Origin: a virus
Taxonomy: Duplodnaviria; Caudoviricetes
Reading direction: 5' to 3' (one strand)
Length of the DNA stretch: 64,000 bases
Virus record (IMG/VR): IMGVR_UViG_3300029288_000063
Location: 64,001-128,000 of that record
Shown here: positions 43,095-62,685 of the stretch, one piece after another
Layout: the number at the start of each line of letters is the position of its first letter
Position numbering within the stretch: the stretch's first letter is position 1
Position numbers and translations under genes: made by a program
Notes under the pieces: model-generated
The model's database searches: none
The model's input: only the letters and a program-made list of their open reading frames with translations
What the model was told of the DNA's origin: nothing

Positions 43095-43106
43095 GTTTTT
43101 CGGTTT

Positions 43107-43247: not shown

Positions 43248-43258
43248 TTTTGTATTGC

Positions 43259-43332
43259 GACGGAGGAGTTGGGTTCGAGTCCCGACCGGAAGCCCATACG
43301 GGATTCCGTGGCGTAACAGGCAGCGTGCCGTC
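43259..43332 (+). ncRNA. stand-alone permuted tRNA-like element
   Basis: GACGG/CCGTC closing stem, T arm GGGTTCGAGTCCC, looped acceptor stem, D-like arm. Confidence 0.55.
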
Positions 43333-43345
43333 ATCTTGTTTTTTT

Positions 43346-43505
43346 CCACACGCTTCAGCGATGGGTTACTTCCATGCTAAGGACGAGGTCGCAGGTTCGA
43401 ATCCTGCTCCCCCAACCCTTGCCCCTGTGATTCTGCGGGGGTATGGGCTGGGGGATGGCTCAGCGGTAGAGCGCGTAAACTAGCCTGTTGCGACTTTTGG
43501 TGTGG
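43346..43505 (+). ncRNA. Y RNA-like ncRNA with permuted tRNA domain
   Basis: Shared module; GCAGGTTCGAATCCTGC precedes GGCTCAGCGGTAGAGC. Confidence 0.8.
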
Positions 43506-48109: not shown

Positions 48110-48325
48110 ATGGATTCGATTCAAGCCGCTATTTCACGTTTGTTTGTTTTGGTAGAAAAAGCAGAATCCAACCAAGAAGACATTTCGGTAAGCCGATATG
48201 TATGTCGGTTGTGCGGTGAAAGTCGACAGTCACTTTGCGAGTGTATAGATCACATTGTTGGTCTGCATTCTGAAAGGCTGAATGAGGTTCGCAACGCTGT
48301 AGATGTGATATGTAAGCGGGTGTAG
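48110..48325 (+). CDS. small C2H2-like Zn-finger protein
   Basis: CRLC...HIVGLH. Confidence 0.45.
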   Translation: MDSIQAAISRLFVLVEKAESNQEDISVSRYVCRLCGESRQSLCECIDHIVGLHSERLNEVRNAVDVICKRV

Positions 48326-48373
48326 CTCAATGGTAGAGCGCCAGCCGTATTAGAAAGGATTTGGGATAGATTA

Positions 48374-48447
48374 GCGCCTATGGTGTAGTGGCCGCATCTT
48401 TGCCTTCCAAGCAAAGGGTCCGTGTTCAAATCACGGTAGGCGCTCCA
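48374..48447 (+). tRNA. tRNA-Gly(TCC), nested replacement
   Basis: TTTGC-CTTCCAA-GCAAA, CCA. Confidence 0.9.
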
Positions 48448-48522
48448 AACCAATAAATTCTTTATATTCGACCCGCTGTTTTGGAACCCGTAATTGGGTT
48501 CCAAAACAGGAGGGGGGTCGAC

Positions 48523-49185
48523 ATGAAGAGTGATGAACGACAAGAGGCAAGAAAACTCAGGGGACAGGGATTATCTGTCAAAGAAATAACAAGGAGAGTC
48601 GGAGTCGCAAAGTCGTCAGTGAGTCGCTGGGTCAGAGACATCGAGCTTACTGACGAACAAAAAATGAACCTCCGACCATGCACAGTTGCTTTTGGAATCA
48701 ATCGATTAAGGTATTTTTCTGAACTTCGGGACTCATACAGAGAAGTAGGGAGAGACCAAGCCAAGAAAAACAACCTTTTGCATGCAATGGGGTGCATGCT
48801 CTACTGGGCAGAAGGATGGCACACAAACAATCGGAACTGTATGAAGTTTTCAAACTCAAGTGTTCCGATGATGAAATTGTTTCTGAAGTTCCTGCGGAAT
48901 GAGATGTCTGTAAAAGATAATGATGTCATCATCAAGATACATTGTTATACAGACAAAAGGAGCGCAAGCGACATTGAATCGCACTGGCTTAACGAACTCG
49001 GTCTTCCGCAAAACTGTTTGAGGAAAACGGTGGCAGACAAAAGGCCGGGGTGTACGCAGAACAAACGCAACAACATTCTGGAATGGGGAACATGCCATCT
49101 GATTATACATGACGTGAGAGTCGTTCAAGGCATCTACGGCGCAATCGAGGAGTATGGGAAATTCAGGAATGGTGCATGGGATTGA
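48523..49185 (+). CDS. HTH + LAGLIDADG-like endonuclease
   Basis: GLSVKEITRRVGVAKSSVSRW; GCMLYWAEG, FSNS; A-rich composition. Confidence 0.7.
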   Translation: MKSDERQEARKLRGQGLSVKEITRRVGVAKSSVSRWVRDIELTDEQKMNLRPCTVAFGINRLRYFSELRDSYREVGRDQAKKNNLLHAMGCMLYWAEGWHTNNRNCMKFSNSSVPMMKLFLKFLRNEMSVKDNDVIIKIHCYTDKRSASDIESHWLNELGLPQNCLRKTVADKRPGCTQNKRNNILEWGTCHLIIHDVRVVQGIYGAIEEYGKFRNGAWD

Positions 49186-49247
49186 GCCAAGCTGGTTATG
49201 AGGGTTCGATTCCCTTCACCCGCTCCAAATTTGGAAGGTGGTGAGAC

Positions 49248-49475
49248 GTGGACAGGGAACACTTAAAATCTTTGATCGAATCACTGAAATCCATCAACCT
49301 CGACGAGTTTGACAGTATATCTGACGATGAGCTTCAAAAGAGGCTTGATAAGGCTCGTGCGTGTAATCCGGAAGGAATGGTGGCGTACGAGAAAATGTTG
49401 AGCGAAATTGACATTGATGAACTCGGACAGGACATCGGTTGTGAGTTGAGGGACGACGTGACAGATATGGTTTGA
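49248..49475 (+). CDS. hypothetical acidic protein
   Basis: GGAAGGTGG SD-like site. Confidence 0.5.
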   Translation: MDREHLKSLIESLKSINLDEFDSISDDELQKRLDKARACNPEGMVAYEKMLSEIDIDELGQDIGCELRDDVTDMV

Positions 49476-49708
49476 GTTTTTTTGGGGAAAGTGAGGGGGC
49501 AACAAGTGTCGGCACAGGAAGGTGTTTGTTGTGTTGTGGCGTTTCCGCATTCCGCAGAGTGTAAGGGTTGTGGGAAGTCGTTCAAAAAGAGAAGTCGTTT
49601 TCATCTTTATTGCAACAGATGTAATAAAAAGGTTTCACGAACGCCTCGGTTTGGATGTGGGACGTTTACAAGACGCCATTCTTGTCCTGATGAAGAAATT
49701 AAATAAAC

Positions 49709-49896
49709 GGCGGCAGAGCCTCGGTGGTCGGGGGACGGTGTGAAAAGAAGTCCAATATGGGAAATACAAAAAGAAAGTCTTGAAGAGATTATCTCTTTGT
49801 CGGCTTCCGTGTCAGAGGTTTTGCGGCGATTGGGGATGAAAACAACGTGCGGTGGAACATATCGAACGCTGATGCGAAGGATAAAAGAAGAAATAA
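49709..49896 (+). pseudogene. tRNA-Cys-like 5' half (49709-49739) and truncated HNH N-terminus (49740-49896)
   Basis: GGCGGCA-GA-GCCTCGGTGGTCGGGG-GACGG; peptide resembles the N-terminus of the 62073 HNH. Confidence 0.6.
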
Positions 49897-49972
49897 GGCG
49901 AGCGAACCCATGCGGCATGGGGACGGACTGCAAACCCGTTAAACTCTGGTTCGACTCCAGCGCTCGCTTCCA
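49897..49972 (+). tRNA. tRNA-Cys(GCA), divergent
   Basis: CT-GCA-AA loop, U73, CCA. Confidence 0.82.
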
Positions 49973-49985
49973 TAAAGGGACGGTA

Positions 49986-50531
49986 ATGTACCCTGAGCAT
50001 CTTTTACCAGTCTTGAAGGCGATGTTGGTCGAGTTGAATTCGACTCGGCTTGAGGTTTTGCTTGTACCTGCGGAAGACCAAAGGCATTGTGGTCATAAAG
50101 TGCGTGTGGTAGAATCGAACAACCCGTGGTGGTATCGGGAAATTTGTTCCCGGTATCCGTCGCGGTCAAAGTCGCATAGTCGTTGTCCGTGGAAGCACAC
50201 AAGGGTGAAAAGGCGAAGGATTTTGGAAGCCCTTGAAAAAATGTCTGCCGATATTTGCTCGAAAAGTTCCTTTGTGGACGATATCCTTGAGGTGGCGGAA
50301 GAAGAGTTGTGCCGATGGGAAGAGGAACGCATAGAGTGGGAGGAACGGTCTACACACTACACCGTGGCGCAATTGGTGGCGCACGACGCTCTGAACGTCG
50401 GGGTTGAAGGTTCGAGTCCTTCCGGTGTAACCATTACCCCGTCGTCTAACGGTAGGACACAAGACTTTGACTCTTGTAACGATGGTTCGAATCCATCCGG
50501 GGTAACCAAATTTGAAGGAGTTCCGTGGTGA
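49986..50531 (+). CDS. hypothetical protein (frame continues through two tRNA-Gln genes; true end uncertain)
   Basis: Start follows tRNA-Cys; protein-like up to about 50357. Confidence 0.4.
   Translation: MYPEHLLPVLKAMLVELNSTRLEVLLVPAEDQRHCGHKVRVVESNNPWWYREICSRYPSRSKSHSRCPWKHTRVKRRRILEALEKMSADICSKSSFVDDILEVAEEELCRWEEERIEWEERSTHYTVAQLVAHDALNVGVEGSSPSGVTITPSSNGRTQDFDSCNDGSNPSGVTKFEGVPW
50358..50433 (+). tRNA. tRNA-Gln(CTG)
   Basis: Cloverleaf, CCA. Confidence 0.9.
50435..50508 (+). tRNA. tRNA-Gln(TTG)
   Basis: Cloverleaf, CCA. Confidence 0.92.
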
Positions 50532-50830
50532 AGATGTATATTCTGATAAAAAATGACTTGGCTGTTGGTCATTCGGTGTTGGCTGCCGCGCACGCTTCGT
50601 TGGCGTGCTATCTGAAGTTCCAGAACGACGAAAGAATGCGCCAGTGGGTGTCAGGCGTGTTTTACAAGGTTGTCTGTGTGGTGTCGCCTGAAGAGTTTGA
50701 GAGGGCGAAGGAGGTCGAGGACAATGTCGTCATGACGGAGTCGTCCCTTGGTGGTGCGGAAGTTGCTGTTGCGTTTTGTCCGAGAGAAGAATGGCCGAAG
50801 ATGTTCAGGTTTCTTCGGCTTTTGAAATAG
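50525..50830 (+). CDS. Pth2-family peptidyl-tRNA hydrolase-like protein
   Basis: KMYILI..DL..G...AAHAS..W...YKVVC. Confidence 0.7.
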   Translation: MVKMYILIKNDLAVGHSVLAAAHASLACYLKFQNDERMRQWVSGVFYKVVCVVSPEEFERAKEVEDNVVMTESSLGGAEVAVAFCPREEWPKMFRFLRLLK

Positions 50831-50833
50831 AAT

Positions 50834-50910
50834 GGTGGTATAGCTTAGTTGGCCGAAAGCACCGGCTTCATAAGCCGGTATCGGTGGTTCGAATCCACCT
50901 ACCACTACCA
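50834..50910 (+). tRNA. tRNA-Met(CAT)
   Basis: Cloverleaf, CCA. Confidence 0.9.
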
Positions 50911-50916
50911 TAATTT

Positions 50917-51008
50917 TGCGGGGGAGTGAAACGGATTTCCCGAAAGGGAATAATCATTCAAGCCCCATAAGCTTGAGATAGTGGGTTCGACTCCCATCCC
51001 CGCGTCCA
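50917..51008 (+). tRNA. tRNA-Met(CAT), fMet-like, with a hairpin inserted in the D loop
   Basis: TGCGGGG/CCCCGCG, CC-CAT-AA loop, CCA. Confidence 0.8.
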
Positions 51009-51029
51009 AATTGCAACGGAGGTTGTATA

Positions 51030-51266
51030 ATGGGTCATATGACGAAGGCGTCTGATTGTATTTGTTGCGTTTGTCATAAGGAAAAGGCTGTTGCCTTTTG
51101 GCCTATGGTTGATATCGACATTCCTGCCCATCCGTATTGTAAGAAGTGTTTGGATGAGGCACAGTTGAAGGTGATGATTCAGTTGGCAGAAACGGACTTT
51201 TATGGGTTGCCGAAGAAAACAAATTCACCGAAGAAGGCGAAAGCAAAGAAAAAGCGAGGTGGTTGA
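51030..51266 (+). CDS. small Zn-finger protein
   Basis: CCVC..YCKKC; GGAGG SD. Confidence 0.6.
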   Translation: MGHMTKASDCICCVCHKEKAVAFWPMVDIDIPAHPYCKKCLDEAQLKVMIQLAETDFYGLPKKTNSPKKAKAKKKRGG

Positions 51267-51359
51267 TGAAGTGGCTATTTAATATTGTTTTCCCGTTTGG
51301 GATTCCGTATTGATATCGCCAGCATAGCTCAATTGGTAGAGCACCTGCTTTGTTGTAAC

Positions 51360-51433
51360 GCTGGCATAGTTCAATGATAGAATAGTTGTCTTGTAAGCAT
51401 CAGACGATGGTTTGATTCCATCTGCCAGCTCCA
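51360..51433 (+). tRNA. tRNA-Thr(TGT), nested divergent replacement
   Basis: CT-TGT-AA loop, A19:U56 compensatory pair, CCA; one anticodon-stem mismatch. Confidence 0.75.
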
Positions 51434-51506
51434 ACAAACAGAAACGCAGACCAAGTGACCAATTCTTTTATGGTCTCCATTCGAATAGCGTAGTCGGCTA
51501 TTTTGG

Positions 51507-52199
51507 ATGGAGGACAAGAGAATGTTCAAGTGCGAAAAGTGTGGTAAGGAGTTTGACAACGAGAGGTCGTTTAGTGGGCACAAAGGTGCCTGCGGGAAGA
51601 AAAAAGAGTGTCCTGTTTGTTGTCGGATGATAAGTGTTTCGAATTTTATTGCGCATGTGAAGTCGCATGAAAACGACAAGGCTTGTCCAGCGTGTGGTGG
51701 GGTGGTTCATGGTCGTGGACGCTTTTGCTCGAAAAGTTGTGCTGCCTCGGTGAACAATGTTGGTGTTGTTCGCAATGGGGTAAAAAAGAAAGACGCGTTT
51801 TGTTTAACGTGTGGAAAGATTTTGGTTCGACGTCAGGTTAAATATTGTTCAAATCATTGCCAACAAGAAAAGAAATATAGAGAATACATAGGTCGGTGGT
51901 TGATTGGAAAAGAAACAGGCAACATGGATGGTTGTATGAATATATCAAATTATGTTCGACGTTGGCTATACGAAACGAGGGGGAAAAGGTGTGAGGGGTG
52001 CGGGTGGGCGAGAAAACATTCGATGGACGGTTCGATTCCGATTCAAGTCGAGCACATTGATGGTAATGCTCAAAACACGACACCTGAAAACTTGAGGATA
52101 TTGTGTCCGAGTTGCCATAGTTTAACGTTGACCTTTGGAAACAGAAACAAGGGAAAGGGTCGATCAAAGAGGCGATCAAAGAGGTGTTCAAAAGAGTAA
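51507..52199 (+). CDS. Zn-finger HNH endonuclease
   Basis: EHIDGN..N..PENLRILCPSCH; several CxxC. Confidence 0.9.
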   Translation: MEDKRMFKCEKCGKEFDNERSFSGHKGACGKKKECPVCCRMISVSNFIAHVKSHENDKACPACGGVVHGRGRFCSKSCAASVNNVGVVRNGVKKKDAFCLTCGKILVRRQVKYCSNHCQQEKKYREYIGRWLIGKETGNMDGCMNISNYVRRWLYETRGKRCEGCGWARKHSMDGSIPIQVEHIDGNAQNTTPENLRILCPSCHSLTLTFGNRNKGKGRSKRRSKRCSKE

Positions 52200-52309
52200 G
52201 CAGGCGGTTGGGGGTTCGAGTCCCTCTGCTGGCTCCATAAAGAAGCTACTTTCCTTCATGAAAACGCCGATATGGCTCAGGAGGTACTCTACCTACTTGG
52301 ACAACAAAT

Positions 52310-52383
52310 GCTGGCATAGTTCAGTGGTAAAACAGATTCTTGGTAAGAATCAGACGAGGGTTCGATTCCCCCTGCCAGCTCCA
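52310..52383 (+). tRNA. tRNA-Thr(GGT)
   Basis: Cloverleaf, CCA; same family as 51360-51433. Confidence 0.88.
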
Positions 52384-52517
52384 AATTGGACTGTTATGAA
52401 AAGATTGCATCATGACCCGGAAAACGGTATAAGTAAAAGGCAGTCGTTGTATGCCAAGAAGACCAGAGCTTGGCTCAGGGGTGTGATGTGTGTTTTGAAA
52501 AAAAAAGGAGAAAATGA

Positions 52518-53021
52518 ATGAGGGTTATTGACGCTCCCGAGTCGTTGTCAGATTTACCGCGCCCGGCAGTGTTCTTGGCGGGCGGGATTACCGGGTGTCC
52601 GGATTGGCAAAATAAGGTTATCGCAGGTCTGTCGGACCTTGACTTTGGGTGTGTCCTGAACCCGCGTCGGGCGAATTTTCCGATTCACGACCCCAATGCG
52701 GCGCGGGAACAAATCACTTGGGAGTTCAACGCCTTGCATAAGGCTGATTTGTTCTCGATGTGGTTTTGCAACACGGAGTCAGACCTACCGATTTGTTTTT
52801 ACGAGTTGGGTCGGTATGTCGCGATTCGGCAGGTAAACGTGCAGCTTGACCGTGTTCTTATTGGTGTTGAGACGGGGTTTAAGCGGTCACAGGATGTGTA
52901 TATTCAAATGGAATTGGTAAACAAGGGAATTTCGGACAACATTTTCTCATCGTTGGACGATTATATAGTGGCGCTTCGTGAGTTGGTGTTGAACTTTGTC
53001 TCGAACACAGTGTTCGAGTAA
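52518..53021 (+). CDS. nucleoside 2-deoxyribosyltransferase-like protein
   Basis: VFLAGGI..CPDWQ, LNPRR, QITWE, YELG. Confidence 0.8.
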   Translation: MRVIDAPESLSDLPRPAVFLAGGITGCPDWQNKVIAGLSDLDFGCVLNPRRANFPIHDPNAAREQITWEFNALHKADLFSMWFCNTESDLPICFYELGRYVAIRQVNVQLDRVLIGVETGFKRSQDVYIQMELVNKGISDNIFSSLDDYIVALRELVLNFVSNTVFE

Positions 53022-53110
53022 ACTGGAGGGTTCTACCATGTTTAGCCTTTTGTGTTCGGAAGTCTTGGTGTTTCGGTGTTGAACTAAAACCAGAGAAAGG
53101 AGGATAACCG

Positions 53111-53620
53111 ATGAAGGTATTGCTTTTGAACCATTCGGAAGAAATTTTGGACGTGATCTCGTGGCAGCGTGCGGTGACGTTGTTGTTTTCGGGAAAGGCC
53201 CGGAAGCCGCATGGCTATGATGATGAGTACGAAATCAAGACCGTGTCCGGTGTTTTCCGGCTTCCGTCGGCTATTGTCCTCGTCTCGTATGTTCGGATTC
53301 CGTACAAGAAGGCGGCAGTCAACAAGGAAAACGTGTTGAAGCGTGACAAGTTCACCTGTCAATACTGTGGTAAGCATTTGACGATGTCATCCGGCACAAT
53401 CGACCACGTTCACCCGACATCTCGTGGCGGGCGGCATGAGTGGAAGAACGTTGTTGCTGCGTGCGCAAAGTGCAACAATAAGAAGGCGAATCAGCGTCCG
53501 GAAGAAGCCGGGATGGTTTTGTTGTCTCATCCGTCCGTGCCGACCCGCAACCTGATTGTTTTGACGGGTATAAATCCCCATACTCTTGGGACGTGGACGA
53601 GGTGGGTTGACCTTGGTTAA
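53111..53620 (+). CDS. HNH endonuclease (McrA-like)
   Basis: RDKFTCQYCG, TIDHVHP.SRGG..W.N..AC.KCN. Confidence 0.9.
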   Translation: MKVLLLNHSEEILDVISWQRAVTLLFSGKARKPHGYDDEYEIKTVSGVFRLPSAIVLVSYVRIPYKKAAVNKENVLKRDKFTCQYCGKHLTMSSGTIDHVHPTSRGGRHEWKNVVAACAKCNNKKANQRPEEAGMVLLSHPSVPTRNLIVLTGINPHTLGTWTRWVDLG

Positions 53621-53662
53621 CGTGTGTGTGGTTTCGTAGATCAATAACACCCGTCGTGCCGT

Positions 53663-54019
53663 GTGGCGACGGGTGTTGTTTTAGGAGCCATCATGATTTT
53701 TTCGTCTCCAATAACCTGTCCACCCGAAACGACTGGTTCGGTTTCATACACTGTTTATTCTGGAGGGACAACATCGACGACCGAAACGACGTTTGTGGCG
53801 AGCAGTGATTGTTCGTGTTCGGCGGGTTGTTCGCGTTGTGCGGATTCGCATGAATATGTTCTGACTGTCTTAATGCCAGTTGAGGGTTATGAGGTTCCAG
53901 TCTTACCGAAAACAAAACACGATTCGTATAAAGGTCATCGTGCGGGGCATCCACGTAAAGTGCGGTCGTGGAACAAGATACACAAGCCATTCGGTGGTTA
54001 TGGATTCTTCCGTGGTTAA
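53663..54019 (+). CDS. hypothetical protein (start uncertain)
   Basis: ORF only. Confidence 0.35.
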   Translation: MATGVVLGAIMIFSSPITCPPETTGSVSYTVYSGGTTSTTETTFVASSDCSCSAGCSRCADSHEYVLTVLMPVEGYEVPVLPKTKHDSYKGHRAGHPRKVRSWNKIHKPFGGYGFFRG

Positions 54020-54037
54020 ATGCGAAGAATCCATCTC

Positions 54038-54111
54038 GGGGCGTGCGTCCCGGTTGACCGGATGGGTCTTATAAACTCGTTGGCAGGGTTCAACTCCTTG
54101 ACGCCCTACCA
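54038..54111 (+). tRNA. tRNA-Ile(TAT)
   Basis: CT-TAT-AA loop, T arm, A73 and CCA; atypical D arm. Confidence 0.75.
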
Positions 54112-54187
54112 AAAAAACAGGCGGATAACCTCCGCCTTTTATTTTTTGAATTACTGACTCTCTGTAGAAACGTAATGGAGAGATCAG

Positions 54188-54649
54188 ATGACCATACAGG
54201 AAATCGGTGGTATATTTGGTATTTTGTCGATGGTTTTCAGTCTAGGTATTTGGCTTTTCAAACGAGGAGCCGATGTGGGTGCGTTTTCGGCTCGCTTCGG
54301 TCAGTTTGCGGAATCGTTGAACTCCTTGAGGCGGCGTCAAGATTCAGCGGAAAAAAGCATTAAACTGTTAGTGGAGGATAGCGTTGATGGTGGTGTTAAT
54401 TGGTCGGTTAAAAAGCTGAAAGAAGATGTCCGTGGTATAATTGAAGATAGTAGAAATATTTCTGACTCGGCAAAACAATCCGAAGTGTTGGCAAGGGAAG
54501 CCTTGGAGCAGATTAAAAAGTTAGACGAAGAGAATGACAAGGAACACGGTAAGAATCAAGCACAGATTATTTTGCTTGCAAAGCAGATTCGTGCAATCAT
54601 TGAACACCTTAATGAGAATGTGCGGAATCAGAAAACAAAACCACAGTAA
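54188..54649 (+). CDS. single-TM coiled-coil protein
   Basis: N-terminal hydrophobic helix; GGAG SD. Confidence 0.6.
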   Translation: MTIQEIGGIFGILSMVFSLGIWLFKRGADVGAFSARFGQFAESLNSLRRRQDSAEKSIKLLVEDSVDGGVNWSVKKLKEDVRGIIEDSRNISDSAKQSEVLAREALEQIKKLDEENDKEHGKNQAQIILLAKQIRAIIEHLNENVRNQKTKPQ

Positions 54650-54717
54650 AAAGTCGTTCCGGAACTATATAGTGTAATTGATTGGTGTTTTTTTGTATTT
54701 TTATAAGGGGTATGAGA

Positions 54718-55236
54718 ATGAAAACGTTTTCTGTATTTCTTGTCGTTGTGTTGTGCTCTGGGTGTGAATTTTCGACCTCTGGGTCATCCTCTGTGTTGCC
54801 TGTAAGTATGAATGTTCAACGTGCGGTGTTGCATTCCGGTGGTCAGGTTGCCACATCTGCCCTTTTAGACAGTTCGTCTATAGACAAGGTTGACCAGCGT
54901 ATTGCAGACACGAAGGTTATTGTCAATGAGATTCGGCAACTCCTTGATACAGGTAAGTTTGGGGCAATGACTTTGGTTGAGCTTCAGTCTGGATTGAACA
55001 AGATTGTTCCGGCTGAATATTCCATTTACTCATCTCAGATTGTATCGGCTGTGTCTGCGTTCGTAACTGTTCCTACCGATAAGCTTGGTGAAAACAACAT
55101 TCTTCGTATTAAGGAAGTTTTGGACGGCATCGAACTTCGCTGCGAACGCTACGACAAGACTGCCCGTCTGAGCGACCGCAGTCTGTCTGCTCCTGCGAAG
55201 ACTCCGAAGAGTGCTGTTCGCATTGTTGTTCAGTGA
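54718..55236 (+). CDS. putative lipoprotein
   Basis: Signal peptide with CSGC lipobox. Confidence 0.6.
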   Translation: MKTFSVFLVVVLCSGCEFSTSGSSSVLPVSMNVQRAVLHSGGQVATSALLDSSSIDKVDQRIADTKVIVNEIRQLLDTGKFGAMTLVELQSGLNKIVPAEYSIYSSQIVSAVSAFVTVPTDKLGENNILRIKEVLDGIELRCERYDKTARLSDRSLSAPAKTPKSAVRIVVQ

Positions 55237-55251
55237 TTCCGCGAGGAAAAT

Positions 55252-55473
55252 ATGATTGACAACCACACTGTTGGTTCTGTGAAACGCATTTCGCCGGTGT
55301 TGAATAGGAATGCTATTGTAAAGAGTGGTGGAGTCCTCCAACAGTCGGAGGAGGTTGGTTATGTTGTAAGGGAGAAAATCGGCGTTGGAGTATATAACCC
55401 ATCCGCGTTAAATCTGTTCTTAAAAAAAGAGTCTGAAGGGGCGTTGCCTGTTTATGATGAAGACCCGAATTGA
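55252..55473 (+). CDS. hypothetical protein
   Basis: GAGG SD. Confidence 0.45.
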   Translation: MIDNHTVGSVKRISPVLNRNAIVKSGGVLQQSEEVGYVVREKIGVGVYNPSALNLFLKKESEGALPVYDEDPN

Positions 55474-57641
55474 AATTCTGTTATGAACTTGATATAGGAA
55501 AGCTGAATATGATCAGGAGAGTTCTTTTTTCGATAGTAGTGGTTGCTGCTATTTGCACTGTTGTTTTAGTGACGATATCAATGACTGTCGTCAAAAATGG
55601 ATTCTCTTCTGTAGATGAGGATCGGGTGATTGAATCCTCACACCTTGTTCGTTCTATCGTTCAAAGAGAATTGCTCGGTTTGGCCAGCACTGTTGGGGAT
55701 TGGTCACGGTGGGATGATGCTTGGGAGTATGTTAATCAAGACGGCAAAGATAGGTCTTTTGTCGAACAAAATATTGATCTCGCTTCACTATTACAGTTGC
55801 GCGTGTTTTATGTCATGTTTCTTGGACGGGATGGACATCCTATTTCCGAATTTGTTGTTCGTGACGGGGACATCTATGAGGTTCCGAATTCCGAGCTGTC
55901 CTTGGCGTCTATAGATGGTTTTCAATCGGCATCTGAACGGTGCATGCGCGGCGAGGTTGTGCAGGGTTTGTCTTGGATAGGAGACAAGATGTCCTTGGTG
56001 GCAATGTCGTCTATCTCTAAGTCGGACGGTTCGTGTGTCGGAAACGGTATGTTGGTTTTCTGTCGTGATGCGTCCGGTATGGTTTCGGAAATTAACAAGA
56101 CGTTTGAGTCGTTTTCGATATCCGGTGATTGTTCAAGCGAGATAATGAACGACCTCGTTATCAATACCTCCGATTCGAGCGTGTCTGGGACTTTTCTTGT
56201 TCCCAGTGTTGAGGGAGGGAAAAACTATCTCGCAAGCCTATCTGTTCCGAGCTTTTCCGAGTTGCAGGGCAACCGCATTATCCTTGTTTTCGTTTTTGCG
56301 AGTATAGGGTTTGTTTTCGTTGTTTCGATTGCGCTGTGGAAGGTTGTTGATAGGATGGTATTATCGAGGCTTTCTGTCACAATGTCCGCTGTCAAAGAGA
56401 TTGGTCGTTCTGCCGATGTGACAAAGAAGCTGCCCGGTGGTGAATGTTCTGATGAGTTTGGCGTTTTCATTCACAACTTGAACGATATGCTTGAATCTAT
56501 TCGCGTGTCAGAAGAAAAGACAAAAGAATCAGAAAATGCTTTAAAACGTTCTGAGCGAGTAACACTTCTTGGCAAATTCGCGGAGGGTATTGCGCACGAC
56601 CTGAATAACCTTTTGGCAATTATTAAGGGCTATGCGGACTCGTTGAAGTTTGCCGGTTCACTTTCTGAATCTCTCGTGCTGTGTGACAACATAAGTTCCA
56701 CAGTCGGAGAATGTACGGCTTTGATTGGTAAGATTTTGTCGTTTTCGAGGCGTGGTAATATCAACTTTGTGCCGGTTGATCTGCACCCATTGTTGGGTGA
56801 TATATGTTCGATGTTTCATTACGCCATAGAGAAAAAGAGTGTATGTTTTGAATCGGTTATGGGGGCGGAGAACAGTGTGGTTCATGGGAACAAGTCTGAA
56901 ATTCAAAATGCCATATTGAGTCTGTTGGTTAATGCCCGAGAGGCTGTTTCTGATAATGGTCATATCTTTATCAAATCAAGAAACGTTATCGACCCTGACG
57001 GTTTGTCTTCTGGTGAATATGTGGAGGTGGAGGTGAGTGATGACGGTGTTGGAATTCCTCCGTCGATTATGAAAAATCTTTTTGTTCCATTTCAAACAAC
57101 AAAGGAATATGGAAAGGGTCTTGGACTTTCTTTTGTTCATGGGACGGCGGAAAGACACAAAGGAAGGGTAAGTGTTTCCAGTATTCCCGGTAAAACATCT
57201 GTGCTGCTCTTGATTCCGTGCTCTGAAAAAAAGGCTAGTGTTCCGGAGAAAAACAGCGTTATGAGACATAAGACTCCGTGTGTTGTGCATGTCGAAGATG
57301 AGGCGGCCATTCGTGAAATCGTTAAGTTGCAGCTTGAGGATGATGGGTTTTGTGTGAAATCTTTTGCGCATGGTGATGGTGCGATTAGTTATGTTCGTGA
57401 ACACAAGCAAGATGTTGACTTTGCGATTCTCGACTTCGCGGTTCCTCCTGTGGATGGTGTTTACATCTTTCATGAGATGAGAAAGATTATACCAACTCTT
57501 CCAGTTGCGTTTATGACTGGTTTTTGTGACGCTAGGGCTGAAGACTTGCGTGCCGAGGGGGCGGTCGGTGTTTTCGAGAAACCAATCAATTTCAAGTCAG
57601 TTCTTAGTCTTCTGAACGATATACTTGGAAAGCGTGGGTAG
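55470..57641 (+). CDS. membrane hybrid histidine kinase (CHASE4-HAMP-HisKA-HATPase-REC)
   Basis: DWSRWDD, two TMs, DEFG, AHDLNN, DDGVG, GLGL, VEDE. Confidence 0.9.
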   Translation: MKFCYELDIGKLNMIRRVLFSIVVVAAICTVVLVTISMTVVKNGFSSVDEDRVIESSHLVRSIVQRELLGLASTVGDWSRWDDAWEYVNQDGKDRSFVEQNIDLASLLQLRVFYVMFLGRDGHPISEFVVRDGDIYEVPNSELSLASIDGFQSASERCMRGEVVQGLSWIGDKMSLVAMSSISKSDGSCVGNGMLVFCRDASGMVSEINKTFESFSISGDCSSEIMNDLVINTSDSSVSGTFLVPSVEGGKNYLASLSVPSFSELQGNRIILVFVFASIGFVFVVSIALWKVVDRMVLSRLSVTMSAVKEIGRSADVTKKLPGGECSDEFGVFIHNLNDMLESIRVSEEKTKESENALKRSERVTLLGKFAEGIAHDLNNLLAIIKGYADSLKFAGSLSESLVLCDNISSTVGECTALIGKILSFSRRGNINFVPVDLHPLLGDICSMFHYAIEKKSVCFESVMGAENSVVHGNKSEIQNAILSLLVNAREAVSDNGHIFIKSRNVIDPDGLSSGEYVEVEVSDDGVGIPPSIMKNLFVPFQTTKEYGKGLGLSFVHGTAERHKGRVSVSSIPGKTSVLLLIPCSEKKASVPEKNSVMRHKTPCVVHVEDEAAIREIVKLQLEDDGFCVKSFAHGDGAISYVREHKQDVDFAILDFAVPPVDGVYIFHEMRKIIPTLPVAFMTGFCDARAEDLRAEGAVGVFEKPINFKSVLSLLNDILGKRG

Positions 57642-57706
57642 CTCAATGGCAGAGCGAGGGCTTCTAAAGCCCTGCGTTATGGGTTCGAGTCCCATCCTAC
57701 GCACCA
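57632..57706 (+). tRNA. amber suppressor tRNA (CTA)
   Basis: AGGGC-TT-CTA-AA-GCCCT, canonical D and T arms, CCA. Confidence 0.85.
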
Positions 57707-57835
57707 CAAATAGTGACGGGGTCGGAAATTCCGACCCCGTTTGGTTTGATATATTTTTTTTATACCGTGCGTACAGTGTGAAGTTGTTTTTTTTGAGATG
57801 GTTGGTTTCAAAAGACCAGAGTAGGAGGATTTGAC

Positions 57836-58060
57836 ATGGCATATCGCACGTTGGATGGAGCTGGACGTGACCGTGCCGAGGCCGTTCTTGAGGAAACCAC
57901 CTTCAAGGGTGGTATTCCGGTTCGTGCGGACGGAGCTGTCCGTGTGATCAGGAAGTATGGCCACGGTGTTGTTCGCACCTCGGGTGCAACGTCCCTGAGT
58001 GGCGCAAACGCTGGTGTTGTTCGCAACTACAATGACAACGGAAAGAACTTCGGGAACTAG
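57836..58060 (+). CDS. small hypothetical protein
   Basis: AGGAGG SD; followed by a terminator hairpin at about 58095-58130. Confidence 0.6.
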   Translation: MAYRTLDGAGRDRAEAVLEETTFKGGIPVRADGAVRVIRKYGHGVVRTSGATSLSGANAGVVRNYNDNGKNFGN

Positions 58061-58185
58061 GTTTTCCGTTTTCCGCCGCCGCGCCTGCAATTGGCACCCC
58101 CGTCTTTGGCGGGGGTGTTTTTATTTTTTTCTTATTGCAATACCTTTTCGCGTGTGTATAGTATTCGCAAATGGAGGATTTGACC

Positions 58186-58512
58186 ATGTTGTAGGTGTCG
58201 CCGAAAAACTTCGTTCTTGTTTGTTCTGACCTACCCCTTGCACATCAGATTGTTCAGGCTGCCCATGCGGCGTATGAAGCCGGAACCACATCCAATATAA
58301 AATCGCCTACCCAACAACGCCTTGTCCTGTGCACTGTCGCGGATGAGGCGTGTCTTTTTTTCGCCTGTGAAAAACTCGAACGGGCGGGAATCAATTTCGT
58401 TTTATTTCGTGAGCCAGACATGGGGAACCGTGCAACGGCTTTGTGTACCGAGGCGCTTAATGACAAGCGTGGTCGGGTGCTGTCGTCGTTTCGTTTGTGG
58501 AAGGAGGGATGA
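58186..58512 (+). CDS. Pth2-like protein with in-frame TAG at codon 3
   Basis: GGAGG-N8-ATG TTG TAG GTG; QIVQAAHAA, FREPDMG..TALC. Confidence 0.7.
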
Positions 58513-58781
58513 ATATGCGCCGGGTCAAGAATCCGTATGGAGACCGTCGCGCTCCTGATGGTGATTTTGCCCACGGGTGGAGGTGGGTGAGAAAAGGCGG
58601 AAGGGTTAAGGTTGCCGGTCTGTGGTATACCGCCCCAAAGCTGGGTGAGATTGTTGGTGAGTACGTCAAAGTCTCCATGAATGACTACTGGCGTTCTGAG
58701 GTGATTATTGAGCGTGGTGCGATTGGTTGTGTTGGTTTTTTCTGCTATGCGAAGCCGGAGAGCGAACATGACGACGAATGA
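58509..58781 (+). CDS. hypothetical protein
   Basis: Coupled ORF. Confidence 0.5.
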   Translation: MNMRRVKNPYGDRRAPDGDFAHGWRWVRKGGRVKVAGLWYTAPKLGEIVGEYVKVSMNDYWRSEVIIERGAIGCVGFFCYAKPESEHDDE

Positions 58782-59118
58782 GCTTATTGATGCGTTGCGG
58801 TCAGCCGACCAGTCAGGCAAGTTGCAGGTGGTTGTTGGTAATGTGCCGATATATACTGTTGACCGGCTTCCTGCGTATTATGACGGGCGGATGCAAGAGC
58901 TGATTCAAGACCACAGTCGTGACCCGTATTACAACATCGTTGGTTTTCGGGTGAAGAGAAGTGGTCAGAAAATCAACTTGTGCACGATAGATTTTGAGAC
59001 GGTACTCTGGGACAACCCGGACGCCGAGGTTGACCTGTCAGACCTGTCCGAAAGGGAACGGTTTGAATGGGAGGCGCGGGTTGCCGAGGTGATTGTTCAA
59101 GCGAAATCTGAGTCCTGA
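58768..59118 (+). CDS. hypothetical phage protein
   Basis: MTT.ELI..L...D.SG; PAYYDG. Confidence 0.6.
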   Translation: MTTNELIDALRSADQSGKLQVVVGNVPIYTVDRLPAYYDGRMQELIQDHSRDPYYNIVGFRVKRSGQKINLCTIDFETVLWDNPDAEVDLSDLSERERFEWEARVAEVIVQAKSES

Positions 59119-59231
59119 TTGTGTGAAAGGAGAAAGCCATGAAGTAGCTGTGTCCCGCGAAGCCTCCGTAATAGGTGTTTGTGTTCTGGTGCTTTTCTGT
59201 GAAACTACAAACCCTATTTTGGAGAAAAATC

Positions 59232-59558
59232 ATGAGCGCAATTGAGAATGTGGTGACTTTTGAAGAACTTCAACGTTCGAAGTGGTTGGAAAAGCGTGCT
59301 GAGTTTCGGGAGTTGATTAAGAGTCTGGCGGCAGAGCAGTCGGCTGAAAAGAAGCTGTTGCGTATGCCGCATGGGTCGATTCCCGAGCAGGAGTATCCGG
59401 CCTATGGTGGCGGGAAGATGACCCTGAAAGGGACTGCCCGCGCCTCGCGTCTGATGTATTCCTGTTGGAGTCGTGCTAGGTCGATTAGCGGATTGCTGGT
59501 TGATTATAAGAAGTTCCTTGGCAAGCCGTATGACATGCACGAAAGCAAAAAGAAGTGA
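59232..59558 (+). CDS. hypothetical protein
   Basis: GGAG SD; hairpin terminator follows. Confidence 0.6.
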   Translation: MSAIENVVTFEELQRSKWLEKRAEFRELIKSLAAEQSAEKKLLRMPHGSIPEQEYPAYGGGKMTLKGTARASRLMYSCWSRARSISGLLVDYKKFLGKPYDMHESKKK

Positions 59559-59690
59559 TTCGCCATGTACCCGCCCGTGAAAAGGCGGGTACATTTTTAT
59601 TATTGGCTTGTTGTTGGAAGAGAATGTCTCTTGGTGCACTTTGTTCGTTGGGAATAAATGCTGTTGTGATGTTTTCGAAAAAATATATTG

Positions 59691-59736
59691 ATTTTTTCCA
59701 GATTTTTGTTGCGCCTACGATGTTTGAATGTATAGT
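59691..59736 (+). promoter_or_regulatory. promoter of RNA operon 2
   Basis: TTTTTTCCAGATTTTTG-TTGCGC-N16-TATAGT. Confidence 0.75.
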
Positions 59737-59773
59737 GGGTCATGTGTGGTAAATTACTTTTATGGAGTCTGTC

Positions 59774-59929
59774 ATGAATAAGTTTGCATTGCTTCCAGTC
59801 CTGCCGGTGTTTGATGCGGCGGCCTATGAATGGCTGACGGCGGGTAGGGAGCTTTGCGGATAAAACAGATTTCAACAAATCCGTAAAACACCTGACCCCG
59901 CCGAGAAGTTCCGGCGGGTTTTTTGTTTT
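59774..59929 (+). promoter_or_regulatory. leader ORF (59774-59863) with antiterminator/terminator attenuator
   Basis: GGAG SD; CGGCGGGTAGG in the leader pairs with the terminator 5' arm CCTGACCCCGCCG. Confidence 0.7.
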
Positions 59930-59936
59930 GCGGTGA

Positions 59937-59974
59937 TGCGGGCATAGTTCCTGCAAGTGGTCTTTGACAATCGA
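59937..59974 (+). promoter_or_regulatory. boxB/boxA-like antitermination site
   Basis: TGCGGG-CATAGTT-CCTGCA then GGTCTTTGACAATCGA. Confidence 0.65.
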
Positions 59975-59996
59975 GTGGCCAAGAAAAGAATTATCC

Positions 59997-60081
59997 GGTG
60001 TGGGTGGCGCTTCGGAAGCGCGGCGGGCTGTAAACTCGTTCCCTTATGGGCAAAGAGGTTCGACTCCTCTCCACACCACCA
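59997..60081 (+). tRNA. tRNA-Tyr(GTA)
   Basis: CT-GTA-AA loop, long variable arm, CCA. Confidence 0.85.
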
Positions 60082-60084
60082 AAT

Positions 60085-60160
<76 letters not shown>

Positions 60161-60190
60161 AATTCAATCCGGGCGTGTGCCCGGTGGAAT

Positions 60191-60267
60191 AGGCGTTTAG
60201 CTCAGGAGGCTAGAGCGTGTGCGTCACAAGCACGAGGTCGCTGGTTCGAATCCAGCATCGCCTACCA
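60191..60267 (+). tRNA. tRNA-Val(CAC)
   Basis: Cloverleaf, CCA. Confidence 0.88.
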
Positions 60268-60278
60268 TAGTTTTTTTT

Positions 60279-60433
60279 GCAGCACTCTTCAGTATGGAGT
60301 TACTTCCTTTCAAACCGAAAATGTGGGTTCGATTCCCACACCTGATGCCGCAACACACGACGGTTCGCCGTCCAGTCGGGTTCGTCTAATGGTAGGACTC
60401 GGGCGCAAGTCTCCATGCGTTCTTTGGTGCTGT
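60279..60433 (+). ncRNA. Y RNA-like ncRNA with permuted Glu-like tRNA domain
   Basis: Shared module; CTTTCAA-ACCGA, T arm, then GTCTAATGGTAGGAC D arm. Confidence 0.8.
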
Positions 60434-60441
60434 TTTTTCAT

Positions 60442-60516
60442 GTCCCGCTCGTCTAGCGGCTAGGACGACAGCTTTTCAAGCTGTAAACCGGAGTTCGATT
60501 CTCCGGCGGGATGCCA
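60442..60516 (+). tRNA. tRNA-Glu(TTC)
   Basis: Cloverleaf, CCA. Confidence 0.92.
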
Positions 60517-60523
60517 AATTCAT

Positions 60524-60610
60524 GCGGGTATGCTGGAATGGCAGACAGGTTGCGTTGAGAGCGCAATGGACGAATTGTCCGTGAGGGTTCAAGTCCCTCT
60601 ATCCGCACCA
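60524..60610 (+). tRNA. tRNA-Leu(GAG)
   Basis: Long variable arm, CCA. Confidence 0.92.
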
Positions 60611-60615
60611 AATTT

Positions 60616-60814
60616 ACCAGTCGTCTGAGGAAGCTCGGGACTGCACCGCGAAAACGGAGGAGGATTGTATAATCTGATTGGACTCCGGAGGCAGCAACCC
60701 CAAATAGGCCCGGAGCGGGAGCGCGGCGTGTTGAAGGGCGGGTTGGGGGCTTAGACCAATGCACGGTTGAAAAACAGAATCCCGGCTACGTAGAACTGTG
60801 CGCGGTCGACTGGT
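60616..60814 (+). ncRNA. rnpB: RNase P RNA, minimal and circularly permuted
   Basis: GAGGAAGCTCGGGA, GCAGCAACCCCAAATAGG, GGGT, TAGACCAATG, ACAGAATCCCGGCTA conserved blocks. Confidence 0.85.
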
Positions 60815-60820
60815 TATTAT

Positions 60821-60897
60821 GTCTCGGTAGGCGAATGGTTGAAGCCGTCACCCCTTCAAGGTGAAAATTACGGGTTCGAATCCCGTCCGAGATACCA
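60821..60897 (+). tRNA. tRNA-Glu(TTC), C33 variant
   Basis: TCACC-CC-TTC-AA-GGTGA, CCA. Confidence 0.8.
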
Positions 60898-60985
60898 CAA
60901 GAAAAGGGAAAGCCCCCCTATGGGAACCATGAAGGCCAAATGGGTTCTCGCAGGCTTGACAACCGGAGAGTACGGTGCCAATGAT

Positions 60986-61061
60986 GTCCCGCTCGTCTAG
61001 TGGTCTAGGATGGCAGATTCTCAGTCTGCGGACAGGGGTTCGAATCCCCTGCGGGATACCA
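60986..61061 (+). tRNA. tRNA-Glu(CTC)
   Basis: Cloverleaf, CCA. Confidence 0.92.
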
Positions 61062-61125
61062 AGATTTCCCTTCGGGTTGACTGGAGGTTGTTCGTACCGC
61101 TGTCGAGGTATGGCGGCGGTAGTTT

Positions 61126-61201
61126 GGAAGGTTAGCCTACGTGGTCACGGCGTCTGCCTGAAGAGCAGAAGAAGTCGGTTCGATTCCGACACCTTCCACC
61201 A
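61126..61201 (+). tRNA. tRNA-Phe(GAA)
   Basis: Cloverleaf, CCA. Confidence 0.85.
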
Positions 61202-61204
61202 TAA

Positions 61205-61290
61205 GCGGGTGTGCTGAAATGGCATACAGGTCGCGCTCAGAACGCGATGCCCGTAAGGGCGTGTGGGTTCGACTCCCTCCATCCGCACCA
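61205..61290 (+). tRNA. tRNA-Leu(CAG)
   Basis: Long variable arm, CCA. Confidence 0.92.
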
Positions 61291-61298
61291 AAAACAAT

Positions 61299-61387
61299 GC
61301 GAGTGTGCTGGAACTGGCATACAGGTCTGTCTCAAAAGCAGATGGGTGAAAAATCCCGTGTGGGTTCGACTCCCACCGCTCGCACCA
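61299..61387 (+). tRNA. tRNA-Leu(CAA)
   Basis: Long variable arm, CCA. Confidence 0.92.
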
Positions 61388-61395
61388 AATATATG

Positions 61396-61544
61396 ATGAC
61401 GCGCTTCGGTAGGGAGATACTTCCATAAGGCTGGTGTCCCTCGGGACGTGTGGGTTCGAGTCCCACAGACTTAACGAAAGTTGGGCGATGGCGAAATGGC
61501 AGACGCACCGGAAAAAAGAAACTCCTTGCGACTTTTGGCGTCAT
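61396..61544 (+). ncRNA. Y RNA-like ncRNA with permuted Leu-like (class II) tRNA domain
   Basis: Shared module; variable arm and T arm precede GGCGAAATGGCAGACGC. Confidence 0.8.
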
Positions 61545-61555
61545 TTTTGAATTTT

Positions 61556-61718
61556 CGGCACGCTTCAGTGATGGGTTACTTCTCACCCAATGAGAGAGGT
61601 CGTAGGGTTCGAATCCCTACCCGCCCGGCCATGAAGGCTTTCGATGAGAGCCTTCATACTTCGGGCGGTAGCTCAGTGGTAGAGCGCTACAACTAGCCTG
61701 TTGCGACTTTTGGTGCCG
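61556..61718 (+). ncRNA. Y RNA-like ncRNA with permuted tRNA domain
   Basis: Shared module; T arm, extended closed acceptor stem, GCTCAGTGGTAGAGC. Confidence 0.8.
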
Positions 61719-61735
61719 TTTGTTGCGTTTTATGT

Positions 61736-61810
61736 AGTCTCGTCGTTCAAAGGCTAGGATTCGGGATTGTCTATCCTGAGATGCGGGTTCGAGTCCCGTC
61801 GAGACTGCCA
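61736..61810 (+). tRNA. tRNA-Asp(GTC), divergent
   Basis: Cloverleaf, CCA. Confidence 0.85.
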
Positions 61811-61813
61811 AAT

Positions 61814-61890
61814 GGACACGTAGCTCAGTTGGTTAGAGCGCTGCCCTGTCACGGCAGAGGTCACCGGTTCGAGTCCGGTCGTGTCCGCCA
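61814..61890 (+). tRNA. tRNA-Asp(GTC)
   Basis: Cloverleaf, CCA. Confidence 0.92.
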
Positions 61891-61898
61891 AAATTTAC

Positions 61899-61974
61899 TG
61901 TGTGGTAGCTCAGTTGGTAGAGCACGGCCCTGAAAAGGCCGGTGTCACCGGTTCGACCCCGGTTCCCACAACCA
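61899..61974 (+). tRNA. tRNA-Phe(GAA)
   Basis: Cloverleaf with one acceptor mismatch, CCA. Confidence 0.82.
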
Positions 61975-62072
61975 AATATAGGCGTATAGCTCAATTGGTA
62001 GAGCACCGGTTCCAAAAACCTTCGGTTTGATAAATAATTTTATAATCTCGTGTCTGTTGAATGGAGACAGAC

Positions 62073-62600
62073 ATGAGGAAGACAAAGTGGACAGATGAAG
62101 AATTGTCGTTGTATGTTGCCGAGTCGTTTGGTTTTTCTGACCTTTTGAGAAAGTTAAAACTTTCAGTATCTAGTGGAAATTACAAGACAATAAGAAGACG
62201 TATAGAAAGTCTTTGTTTGGATACTAGGCATTGGACTGGAAAGTCTCAATGTGGAGATCGAAACCCAAGTTTTCGTCACAGAATTCCGCTTGAACAGATT
62301 TTGGTAGAGAATGGGTTTTATAGGAATCTGCCAAGATTGAAACAGAGGTTGATTAAAGAGGGTTTGTTAGAAAACAAGTGTGCTATTTGCGGACTTAGTT
62401 CTGTGTGGAATAATAAGAAAATTGTTATGATTTTGGATCATGTAAATGGTGAATCATTTGATCATAGATTTGAAAATTTGAGACTTGTTTGTCCGAATTG
62501 TAATAGTCAGATTGATACTTTTGCTGGAAGAAACAAGAAGAAAAAACGAACGGATGCAGCAAGTGGGTGTTGCGGTCAGACTCCAAATCTGACGTCTTAG
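62073..62600 (+). CDS. HNH endonuclease
   Basis: CAICG, LDHVNG..DHRFENLRLVCPNCN; AT-rich. Confidence 0.9.
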   Translation: MRKTKWTDEELSLYVAESFGFSDLLRKLKLSVSSGNYKTIRRRIESLCLDTRHWTGKSQCGDRNPSFRHRIPLEQILVENGFYRNLPRLKQRLIKEGLLENKCAICGLSSVWNNKKIVMILDHVNGESFDHRFENLRLVCPNCNSQIDTFAGRNKKKKRTDAASGCCGQTPNLTS

Positions 62601-62627
62601 CGGGTTCGATTCCTGTCATCCGTGCCA
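62550..62627 (+). tRNA. tRNA-Trp(CCA), nested divergent replacement
   Basis: ACGGATG/CATCCGT, TCAGA-CTCCAAA-TCTGA, C8:G14, G73 and CCA. Confidence 0.85.
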
Positions 62628-62685
62628 ATCTTGTAATCCGTTCAAAACCGGCGGTTGGGGGTTCGAGTCCCTCTGCGCCTGCCAT

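Follow-up and report, generated by a model that had tools for sequence, protein, structure and literature searches.

Nuclease genes paired with same-type tRNAs inside split tRNA genes of a jumbo phage: probable intron-less homing units that carry a rescue tRNA

The usual view is that homing endonucleases gain access to essential, conserved sites chiefly through self-splicing introns or inteins. A 64,000-nucleotide stretch of DNA from a virus of the Caudoviricetes (“the window”; positions 64,001 to 128,000 of IMG/VR record IMGVR_UViG_3300029288_000063) raises the question of whether a transfer RNA (tRNA) gene can be occupied in some other way. The window is part of a 253,102-bp virus contig (CheckV completeness 75%). 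The contig belongs to a jumbo phage and encodes an almost complete set of tRNAs (57 tRNA calls), together with one transfer-messenger RNA (tmRNA). Three tRNA genes of the window are split in the anticodon loop by inserts, each of which holds a nuclease gene and a complete tRNA for the same amino acid. An earlier note on the window had interpreted these inserts as splicing-free homing elements that break a tRNA gene and complement it with a recoded copy which their nuclease cannot cut. The analysis reported here supports that interpretation overall: each insert is probably a free-standing, intron-less homing endonuclease gene joined to a cognate, resistant rescue tRNA allele. Within this reading, we infer cutting, immunity, homing and tRNA expression.

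The whole contig was scanned for D-arm and T-arm pieces lying outside complete tRNAs, and the pieces were paired by the complementarity of their acceptor and anticodon stems. This procedure recovers exactly three half pairs in the window, at the sites where the earlier note had placed the split genes. Each pair has a complementary acceptor stem and five of five anticodon-stem pairs, and encloses one nuclease-like open reading frame (ORF) and one complete tRNA (Table 1); the halves alone are called Gly, Thr and Trp by nearest neighbour. Rfam gives the inner tRNA-Trp(CCA) a weak tRNA-clan match alone (36.7 bits). The outer halves show decay. Those of the Gly gene lack U33 and N34, a detail that goes beyond the earlier account, and their anticodon, which is not fully readable, would be xCC. 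In the Thr cassette, the stop codon of the HNH gene is formed by U36-A37-A38 of the outer tRNA.

Table 1. Features of the three cassettes (window coordinates) and of RNA genes and RNA-repair genes elsewhere on the contig (G000 coordinates)
Feature	Position	Strand	Remarks
Outer tRNA-Gly 5' half	48316..48346	+	Acceptor strand, D arm, anticodon 5' stem, C32; U33 lost
Inner tRNA-Gly(TCC), complete	48374..48447	+	Rfam tRNA, 57.3 bits
Long hairpin over Shine-Dalgarno and start codon of Gly nuclease	48459..48529	+	-41 kcal/mol, z -7.2
Gly-cassette nuclease, 220 aa, helix-turn-helix (HTH) and single-motif LAGLIDADG-fold, putative homing endonuclease	48523..49185	+	Motif LYWAEG at residue 93
Outer tRNA-Gly 3' half	49187..49227	+	C35 to CCA end
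Outer tRNA-Thr(TGT) 5' half	51318..51353	+	Extends through anticodon
Inner tRNA-Thr(TGT), complete	51360..51433	+	Non-canonical D and T loops; Rfam, 61.3 bits
Hairpin over ribosome-binding site of Thr HNH	51456..51528	+	-27.3 kcal/mol, z -3.6
Thr-cassette zinc-finger HNH endonuclease (phrog_1271), 225 aa	51522..52199	+	PHROGs E 2.5e-24; catalytic motif intact
Outer tRNA-Thr 3' half	52196..52237	+	Overlaps 5' half by 2 nt
Outer tRNA-Trp(CCA) 5' half	61980..~62014	+	C32 missing; then degenerate repeat of loop and 3' stem
Hairpin over ribosome-binding site and start codon of Trp HNH	62047..62079	+	62014-62085 folds at -21 kcal/mol, z -4.0
Trp-cassette HNH endonuclease (phrog_10822), 174 aa	62076..62600	+	PHROGs E 1.8e-43; last 51 nt inside inner tRNA-Trp
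Inner tRNA-Trp(CCA)	62550..62627	+	Divergent (C8, unusual D arm); ARAGORN; only Trp tRNA of the contig
Outer tRNA-Trp 3' half	62643..62684	+	
RtcB and Rnl2-type RNA ligase	G000:22691-23920 and 135903-136532		Same phage contig
tmRNA	G000:133990-134334		

If the outer halves were reunited at the RNA level, the inserts would be protein-spliced tRNA introns like those of Lak phages, excised and ligated by a nuclease of the host or the phage together with RtcB or Rnl2, and the nuclease gene and inner tRNA would be passengers. The contig does encode an RtcB (E 1.6e-62) and an Rnl2-type RNA ligase (E 1.5e-22), the halves have kept near-perfect stems, the Thr halves could rejoin exactly, and introns are present in tRNA genes of Lak phages, including one that may hold a tRNA (PMC6784885). 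The junctions nevertheless make this explanation quite unlikely. U33 is missing from the Gly halves and C32 from the Trp 5' half, so that neither gene can be rejoined anywhere to form a canonical 7-nt loop; in strain L006 (92% to 95% identical), the Gly 3' half has T in place of C35; and the break points vary, ranging from about position 27 to position 38. No match to the splicing endonuclease EndA was found in the contig, which is 75% complete. In addition, a spare tRNA for the same amino acid would be pointless if the interrupted gene were spliced, and the amino-acid match is missing from short nested tRNAs that lack a nuclease (see below). The outer halves look dead.

A related possibility is that the inserts descend from group I introns which lost their ribozyme core, captured a second tRNA later as a rescue, and are now immobile relics. 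Group I introns with homing endonucleases are found in bacterial and phage tRNA genes, as in the case of I-Ssp6803I in tRNA-fMet, and the inserts share with such introns (L002, L037, L116) the anticodon-loop target and overlapping nuclease families (HNH, PD-(D/E)XK_5). Two group I-like introns, both recognized by eye and missed by Rfam, contain such enzymes: an HNH of the Thr type lies in one that interrupts Thr(TGT) in locus L116, and an HNH of the Trp type in one that interrupts Leu(TAA) in L002. The PD-(D/E)XK_5 family is that of I-Ssp6803I, known from a tRNA-fMet intron. The occurrence of the same HNH families in tRNA introns makes introns a likely origin of the nuclease genes, and such an origin would agree with the reading preferred here. 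Descent of the inserts themselves from introns is, however, unlikely. The sequence in each insert that belongs to neither ORF nor tRNA amounts to less than 90 nt and is mostly hairpin, so there is no room for a P3-P9 ribozyme core, and no core remnants are seen; Rfam gives no intron match at 40-64 kb of the window, although it also misses the ORF-interrupted introns of L002 and L116. The junctions are imprecise, with overlaps that run from -4 to +5 nt across 18 cassettes, and the U/G junction of group I introns is found in one of these 18 and is possible in none of the three in the window. The unit of nuclease and tRNA is, moreover, common without any halves. Rescue would come from a spare gene and not from splicing, unlike in group I introns, and the window nucleases lie free-standing, outside any intron or intein. 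As the earlier note had stated, no integrase or group I core is present in the inserts, each of which has a single nuclease ORF and lacks a duplicated tRNA end (attL/attR).

The pairing of a nuclease with a same-type tRNA recurs elsewhere. About 510 loci (L numbers) were surveyed, drawn from homolog scans and from two nuclease-agnostic DNA-pattern scans; among the matches listed, the pattern scans yielded few cassettes (L465, L476, L504). At least 21 distinct cassettes were found outside the window: 18 are clear amino-acid matches, including L044c with a Leu CAA outer and a Leu TAA inner tRNA, two are tentative (L044b, L103) and one is a mismatch, so the isotype matching that the earlier note had described survives outside the window. 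As a background, neighbouring complete tRNAs share their amino acid in 17.6% and their anticodon in 4.4% of 2,039 pairs. Compared with the 17.6%, 18 matches out of 21 correspond to p 2e-11 when the tentative cases are scored as misses, for loci that are neither independent nor randomly sampled. The outer isotypes were called partly by eye; blind nearest-neighbour assignment agreed in 10 of 13 cases, and the three misses have the anticodon spelled in loop remnants.

The nested cassettes employ HTH-LAGLIDADG nucleases, several groups of HNH nucleases and PD-(D/E)XK_5 nucleases. Homologs of the Gly nuclease (57-58% identity) lie within interrupted Gly(TCC) genes and are accompanied by an inner Gly(TCC), and the outer alleles, inner alleles and break points of these cassettes all differ. 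A single locus, L003, has six cassettes within 20 kb (Thr GGT, Val CAC, Arg CCG, Gly TCC, Ile GAT and Arg CCT), which use nucleases of the HNH, PD-(D/E)XK_5 and LAGLIDADG-like families. Nested tRNAs that are short (83-127 nt; L159, L298, L345, L430 group) and have no nuclease with them, by contrast, mismatch the outer gene in all four callable groups, and the amino-acid match therefore belongs to the nuclease-bearing form.

Each nuclease family is linked to a particular tRNA, and mostly without halves. Gly(TCC), which makes up 5% of all tRNAs, adjoins 59 of 112 Gly-family ORFs, and Thr(TGT), which makes up 4%, adjoins 30 of 88 Thr-family ORFs; paired halves are found at only about eight distinct Gly-family loci. 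Since most family members lie beside an intact cognate tRNA, the unit is the nuclease plus its cognate tRNA, and nested halves would be a minority scar, the footprint of a unit joined into a cut. Destruction of a tRNA gene, as claimed for the cassette, is accordingly the less common outcome. Lone 3' tRNA fragments occur immediately after the nuclease unit in L010, L022 and L197; these would be partial scars, intermediate between the nested and the clean forms. In the window, the N-terminal remnant of a phrog_10822 HNH gene (49740-49895, E 1.2e-5) abuts tRNA-Cys(GCA) (49897-49972), and the pair (49740-49972) is possibly a decayed fourth nuclease and tRNA unit. The window also has a free HNH_5 gene with no split tRNA attached (53111-53620) and a nucleoside deoxyribosyltransferase-like gene nearby (52518-53021). 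At L195-L270, genes of the HTH-LAGLIDADG-like family, annotated as transcription regulators or transposases, follow tRNA-Gly(TCC) at a distance of about 30 nt; this arrangement is found in dozens of metagenome contigs of high GC content, which resemble bacterial chromosomes.

With regard to the enzymes, the HNH identity proposed for two of them is borne out by PHROGs, and the catalytic motifs of both proteins are complete; the LAGLIDADG-like label given to the Gly ORF finds moderate backing in structure. The Gly nuclease has an N-terminal HTH and a C-terminal domain that profiles leave unnamed: the HTH alone is named by Pfam, the PDB sequence search and the ESM Atlas, and no LAGLIDADG match was found by PDB sequence search, no match among cultured phages, nor any significant match by Foldseek with the full-length protein. 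An invariant E97-G98 closes its LAGLIDADG-like helix, and with its AlphaFold model (pLDDT 90) the top six structural matches of the C-terminal domain found by VIA are all LAGLIDADG proteins, among them 7qsu (Z 7.5, root-mean-square deviation 2.8, 83 aligned), WhiA (6.9) and I-DmoI (6.6). Two copies of this domain are predicted to pack via the motif helix, with a score of 0.74 versus 0.15 for the best control; the runs agree to at least 93% with pLDDT of at least 83, and the mark used is reached by 20 of 30 solved homodimers and 1 of 23 monomers. This result may reflect likeness to solved LAGLIDADG dimers.

The ribosome-binding site of each of the three cassette nucleases in the window is covered by a hairpin, and hairpins resembling that of the Gly nuclease are also found in L003 and L005. 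Hairpins that sequester the start codon are a form of control proposed for SegB, I-TevI-III and MobE, including homing endonucleases of T4 (PMC2330249). Since the ORF of the Trp HNH runs into the inner tRNA, maturation of that tRNA would cut the nuclease mRNA, and such cutting by tRNA processing has been proposed for segB mRNA (PMC2330249); a homolog of the Trp HNH in L272 (57%) likewise overlaps a Trp(CCA).

Filled and empty alleles can be compared in cultured phages for the Thr-HNH family, the presence of which is patchy. Relatives of the Thr HNH, 45-50% identical to the window protein over the HNH domain, adjoin tRNA-Thr in GAP32, Kpn_B01, Ec-M-J, HdH2 and OspM_OC, and empty cognate alleles are present in T5-like phages and Asteriusvirus. 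T5-like non-carriers have the Thr anticodon stem GTTGC/GCATC. In the T5-like carrier HdH2 this stem reads ACGGT/ACCGT, in a tRNA that is otherwise unchanged. The rewritten stem is present in all seven distinct T5-like HNH carriers and in three non-carriers, and the common stem in 302 records. In Asteriusvirus, the site that holds the Thr(TGT) gene of non-carriers is occupied in carriers by an entirely different Thr(TGT) allele. A nuclease that travels with an immune allele would be expected to produce such a pattern, and the two comparisons support the step in which nuclease and allele are linked, not cutting. The inner Thr arm of the window is one base from the T5-like common arm, which means that specificity must differ between members of the family.

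The three T5-like phages with a rewritten stem and no HNH would also fit selection by host anticodon nucleases. Under such selection, resistant tRNA alleles would replace the phages' own, with the nuclease gene as a hitch-hiker or as a supplier of recombination. The SegB-driven tRNA amplification that defeats Septu, OLD and ToxIN, with tRNA-Tyr amplified against Septu (PMC13096335), is a precedent, and the inner tRNAs do have unusual features. Defence alone nevertheless fails to explain why unrelated nuclease families are inserted at same-type anticodons, why the catalytic motifs are intact and why the genes bear repressive hairpins. As a full account it is very unlikely, although selection of this kind can act on top of homing.

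The homing-and-rescue reading would operate as follows. The nuclease would cut DNA in the anticodon arm of the common allele; as DNA this arm is a 17-bp pseudo-palindrome, which would suit a homodimeric LAGLIDADG enzyme. Repair would usually put the unit of resistant tRNA and nuclease in place of the entire gene, or co-convert the stem, and would sometimes join the unit into the break by imprecise end-joining, producing two dead halves like those in the window. During co-infection the unit would spread by gene conversion, and the halves could act as conserved homology arms. The carried tRNA would complete the anticodon set of the phage, which would make splicing unnecessary; the inner Gly(TCC), Thr(TGT) and Trp(CCA) genes are the sole copies of these anticodons in the contig. 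Expression of the nuclease would be kept low by the hairpin over the ribosome-binding site and by tRNA processing through the mRNA.

Several observations weigh against this reading. With RtcB and an Rnl2-type ligase encoded in the contig, enzymatic splicing keeps a small probability. Only 3 mismatches in 28 positions separate the rebuilt Gly target from the Gly(CCC) gene at 48016, which is intact, and the enzyme must therefore discriminate finely (at the loop centre), be repressed, or be inactive. The likeness of the Gly nuclease to LAGLIDADG proteins is structurally moderate (best Z 7.5), and LAGLIDADG is not among the 25 Pfam families listed for its 115 homologs. The mismatched cassette (L504:4542-5196) has an HNH and Phe(GAA) unit within an Ile(GAT) gene, a one-base anticodon mismatch which suggests that a pre-formed unit landed off target. 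The depletion of target-like arms among linked tRNAs is weak family-wide (p 0.05-0.5). In each lineage, the T5-like phages included, the association of nuclease and allele may be a single event. The uninterrupted alleles that the earlier note proposed to find by aligning related phages exist in T5-like phages and Asteriusvirus, but no empty allele from a close relative of the present phage was found, either by a look-up of neighbouring-protein clusters or by genome BLAST against the surveyed loci, in which the sole relative, L006, also has the cassette. Finally, the idea that the inner tRNA is specially diverged from its victim is not supported: in nested cases, inner and outer stems are identical at 3.4 of 10 positions versus 4.0 for random same-anticodon tRNAs (p 0.17), and the bodies have an identity of 0.61 versus 0.58 (p 0.10). 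The element thus carries its own tRNA of the same type, as had been claimed, but this tRNA is an unrelated allele, imported and not recoded from the victim.

RtcB, the Rnl2-type ligase and the tmRNA form an RNA repair kit beside the tRNA cluster. Sub-threshold Rfam matches in the window include RNase P RNA (31.7 bits) and a Y RNA-like YrlA (sites 60609-60798, 43376-43484 and 61595-61688), orphan T-arm RNAs lie at 43033-43400, 44463, 50981, 60323 and 61450, and D-arm-like pieces are repeated at 43456, 45280 and 61669. An amber suppressor-like tRNA with a CTA anticodon (57632-57706) overlaps the end of a 723-aa ORF (55470-57641), by eye a sensor kinase/receiver hybrid. A PTH2-like ORF (Pfam) and a second ORF of similar appearance (by eye) are found at 50525-50830 and 58195-58512.

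It remains to compare the cassettes with known systems. Elements and prophages that integrate into tRNA genes depend on an integrase, and the target gene itself is made whole again by a duplicated copy of its end; the cassettes resemble these in their target and in the presumed preservation of function, but they have no recombinase and their inner tRNA is a whole, unrelated allele. In fractured genes, split inteins are separated by a free-standing endonuclease (PMC2677866). There, too, a phage gene has been split by a homing endonuclease that arrived with control elements, but the product is restored by protein trans-splicing, while here the halves would be abandoned.

The tRNA introns of Lak megaphages, one of which has a possible tRNA inside (PMC6784885; repeated in PMC13037316), likewise interrupt a tRNA gene in the anticodon loop and may hold a tRNA. 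They differ in being about 80-115 nt long, in having no nuclease ORF and in being conserved across cohorts, and the Lak-type nested tRNA looks like a separate phenomenon; the proposal that the cassette explains the Lak tRNA-in-intron is unsupported, given that short nested tRNAs in the surveyed loci mismatch the outer type. The main text of Al-Shayeb 2020 does not mention introns. In the survey, Lak-like anticodon-loop inserts of 45-100 nt are numerous (L113, L122, L123, L131, L169, L382, L430, L506), and some short inserts enclose a complete tRNA for another amino acid (L159, L298, L345:4972-5124, L430 group). Nucleases of PD-(D/E)XK type and HNH type also lie inside Lys, Pro and Thr tRNA genes at L345:3932-4496, L345:6165-6721 and L123:2287-3008; these inserts have neither an inner tRNA nor an Rfam intron match, those of L345 have paired ends, and the phages concerned may splice their tRNAs by an unfamiliar route.

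The closest known system is SegB of T4 and T6, a free-standing GIY-YIG homing endonuclease of the tRNA cluster (PMC2330249; PMC13096335, where F-TflI/II of T5 are also mentioned). Both are intron-less nuclease genes among phage tRNA genes, with a start-codon hairpin, an mRNA that would be cut by tRNA processing, and tRNA genes as their target, which for the cassettes is a prediction. SegB differs in that it recognizes a T-loop motif common to many tRNAs, has neighbouring tRNAs with no preferred isotype, and is not located within a broken tRNA gene; in the cassettes, every nuclease family goes with a single type of tRNA, inserts at the anticodon arm and brings the cognate allele along. Judged by their sequences, the cassettes appear to work like SegB-class free-standing homing endonucleases, and they lack the features of group I introns, Lak-type introns and integrative islands. 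No description of a nested nuclease and same-type tRNA design was found in the searchable literature, which includes few subscription papers.

The phenomenon is real and widespread. Synthetic home-and-rescue gene drives, which are engineered, RNA-guided and eukaryotic, direct a nuclease against an essential gene and link it to a resistant copy; the logic is shared, as an analogy only. Whether the cassettes constitute a third homing route beside introns and inteins, that is, natural home-and-rescue drives that arose anew in at least three nuclease superfamilies, each equipped with an immune allele and aimed at a single tRNA type in its anticodon arm, is a proposition for which the chances seem to us evenly balanced. 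A spare, resistant copy of a small essential gene would be a different solution from that of introns and inteins. If the proposition is true, home-and-rescue drives do much to shape phage tRNA genes, both in their turnover and in their odd sequences, and are a source of nucleases specific for tRNA genes. They would explain the crowding of HNH, LAGLIDADG-like and PD-(D/E)XK genes in phage tRNA clusters, and also the frequent unusual tRNA stems, which are usually attributed to codon usage or to escape from anticodon nucleases. Ordinary annotations of an “HNH next to a tRNA” could then hide such drives, and the T5-like carrier and non-carrier pair makes the idea testable in E. coli K-12.

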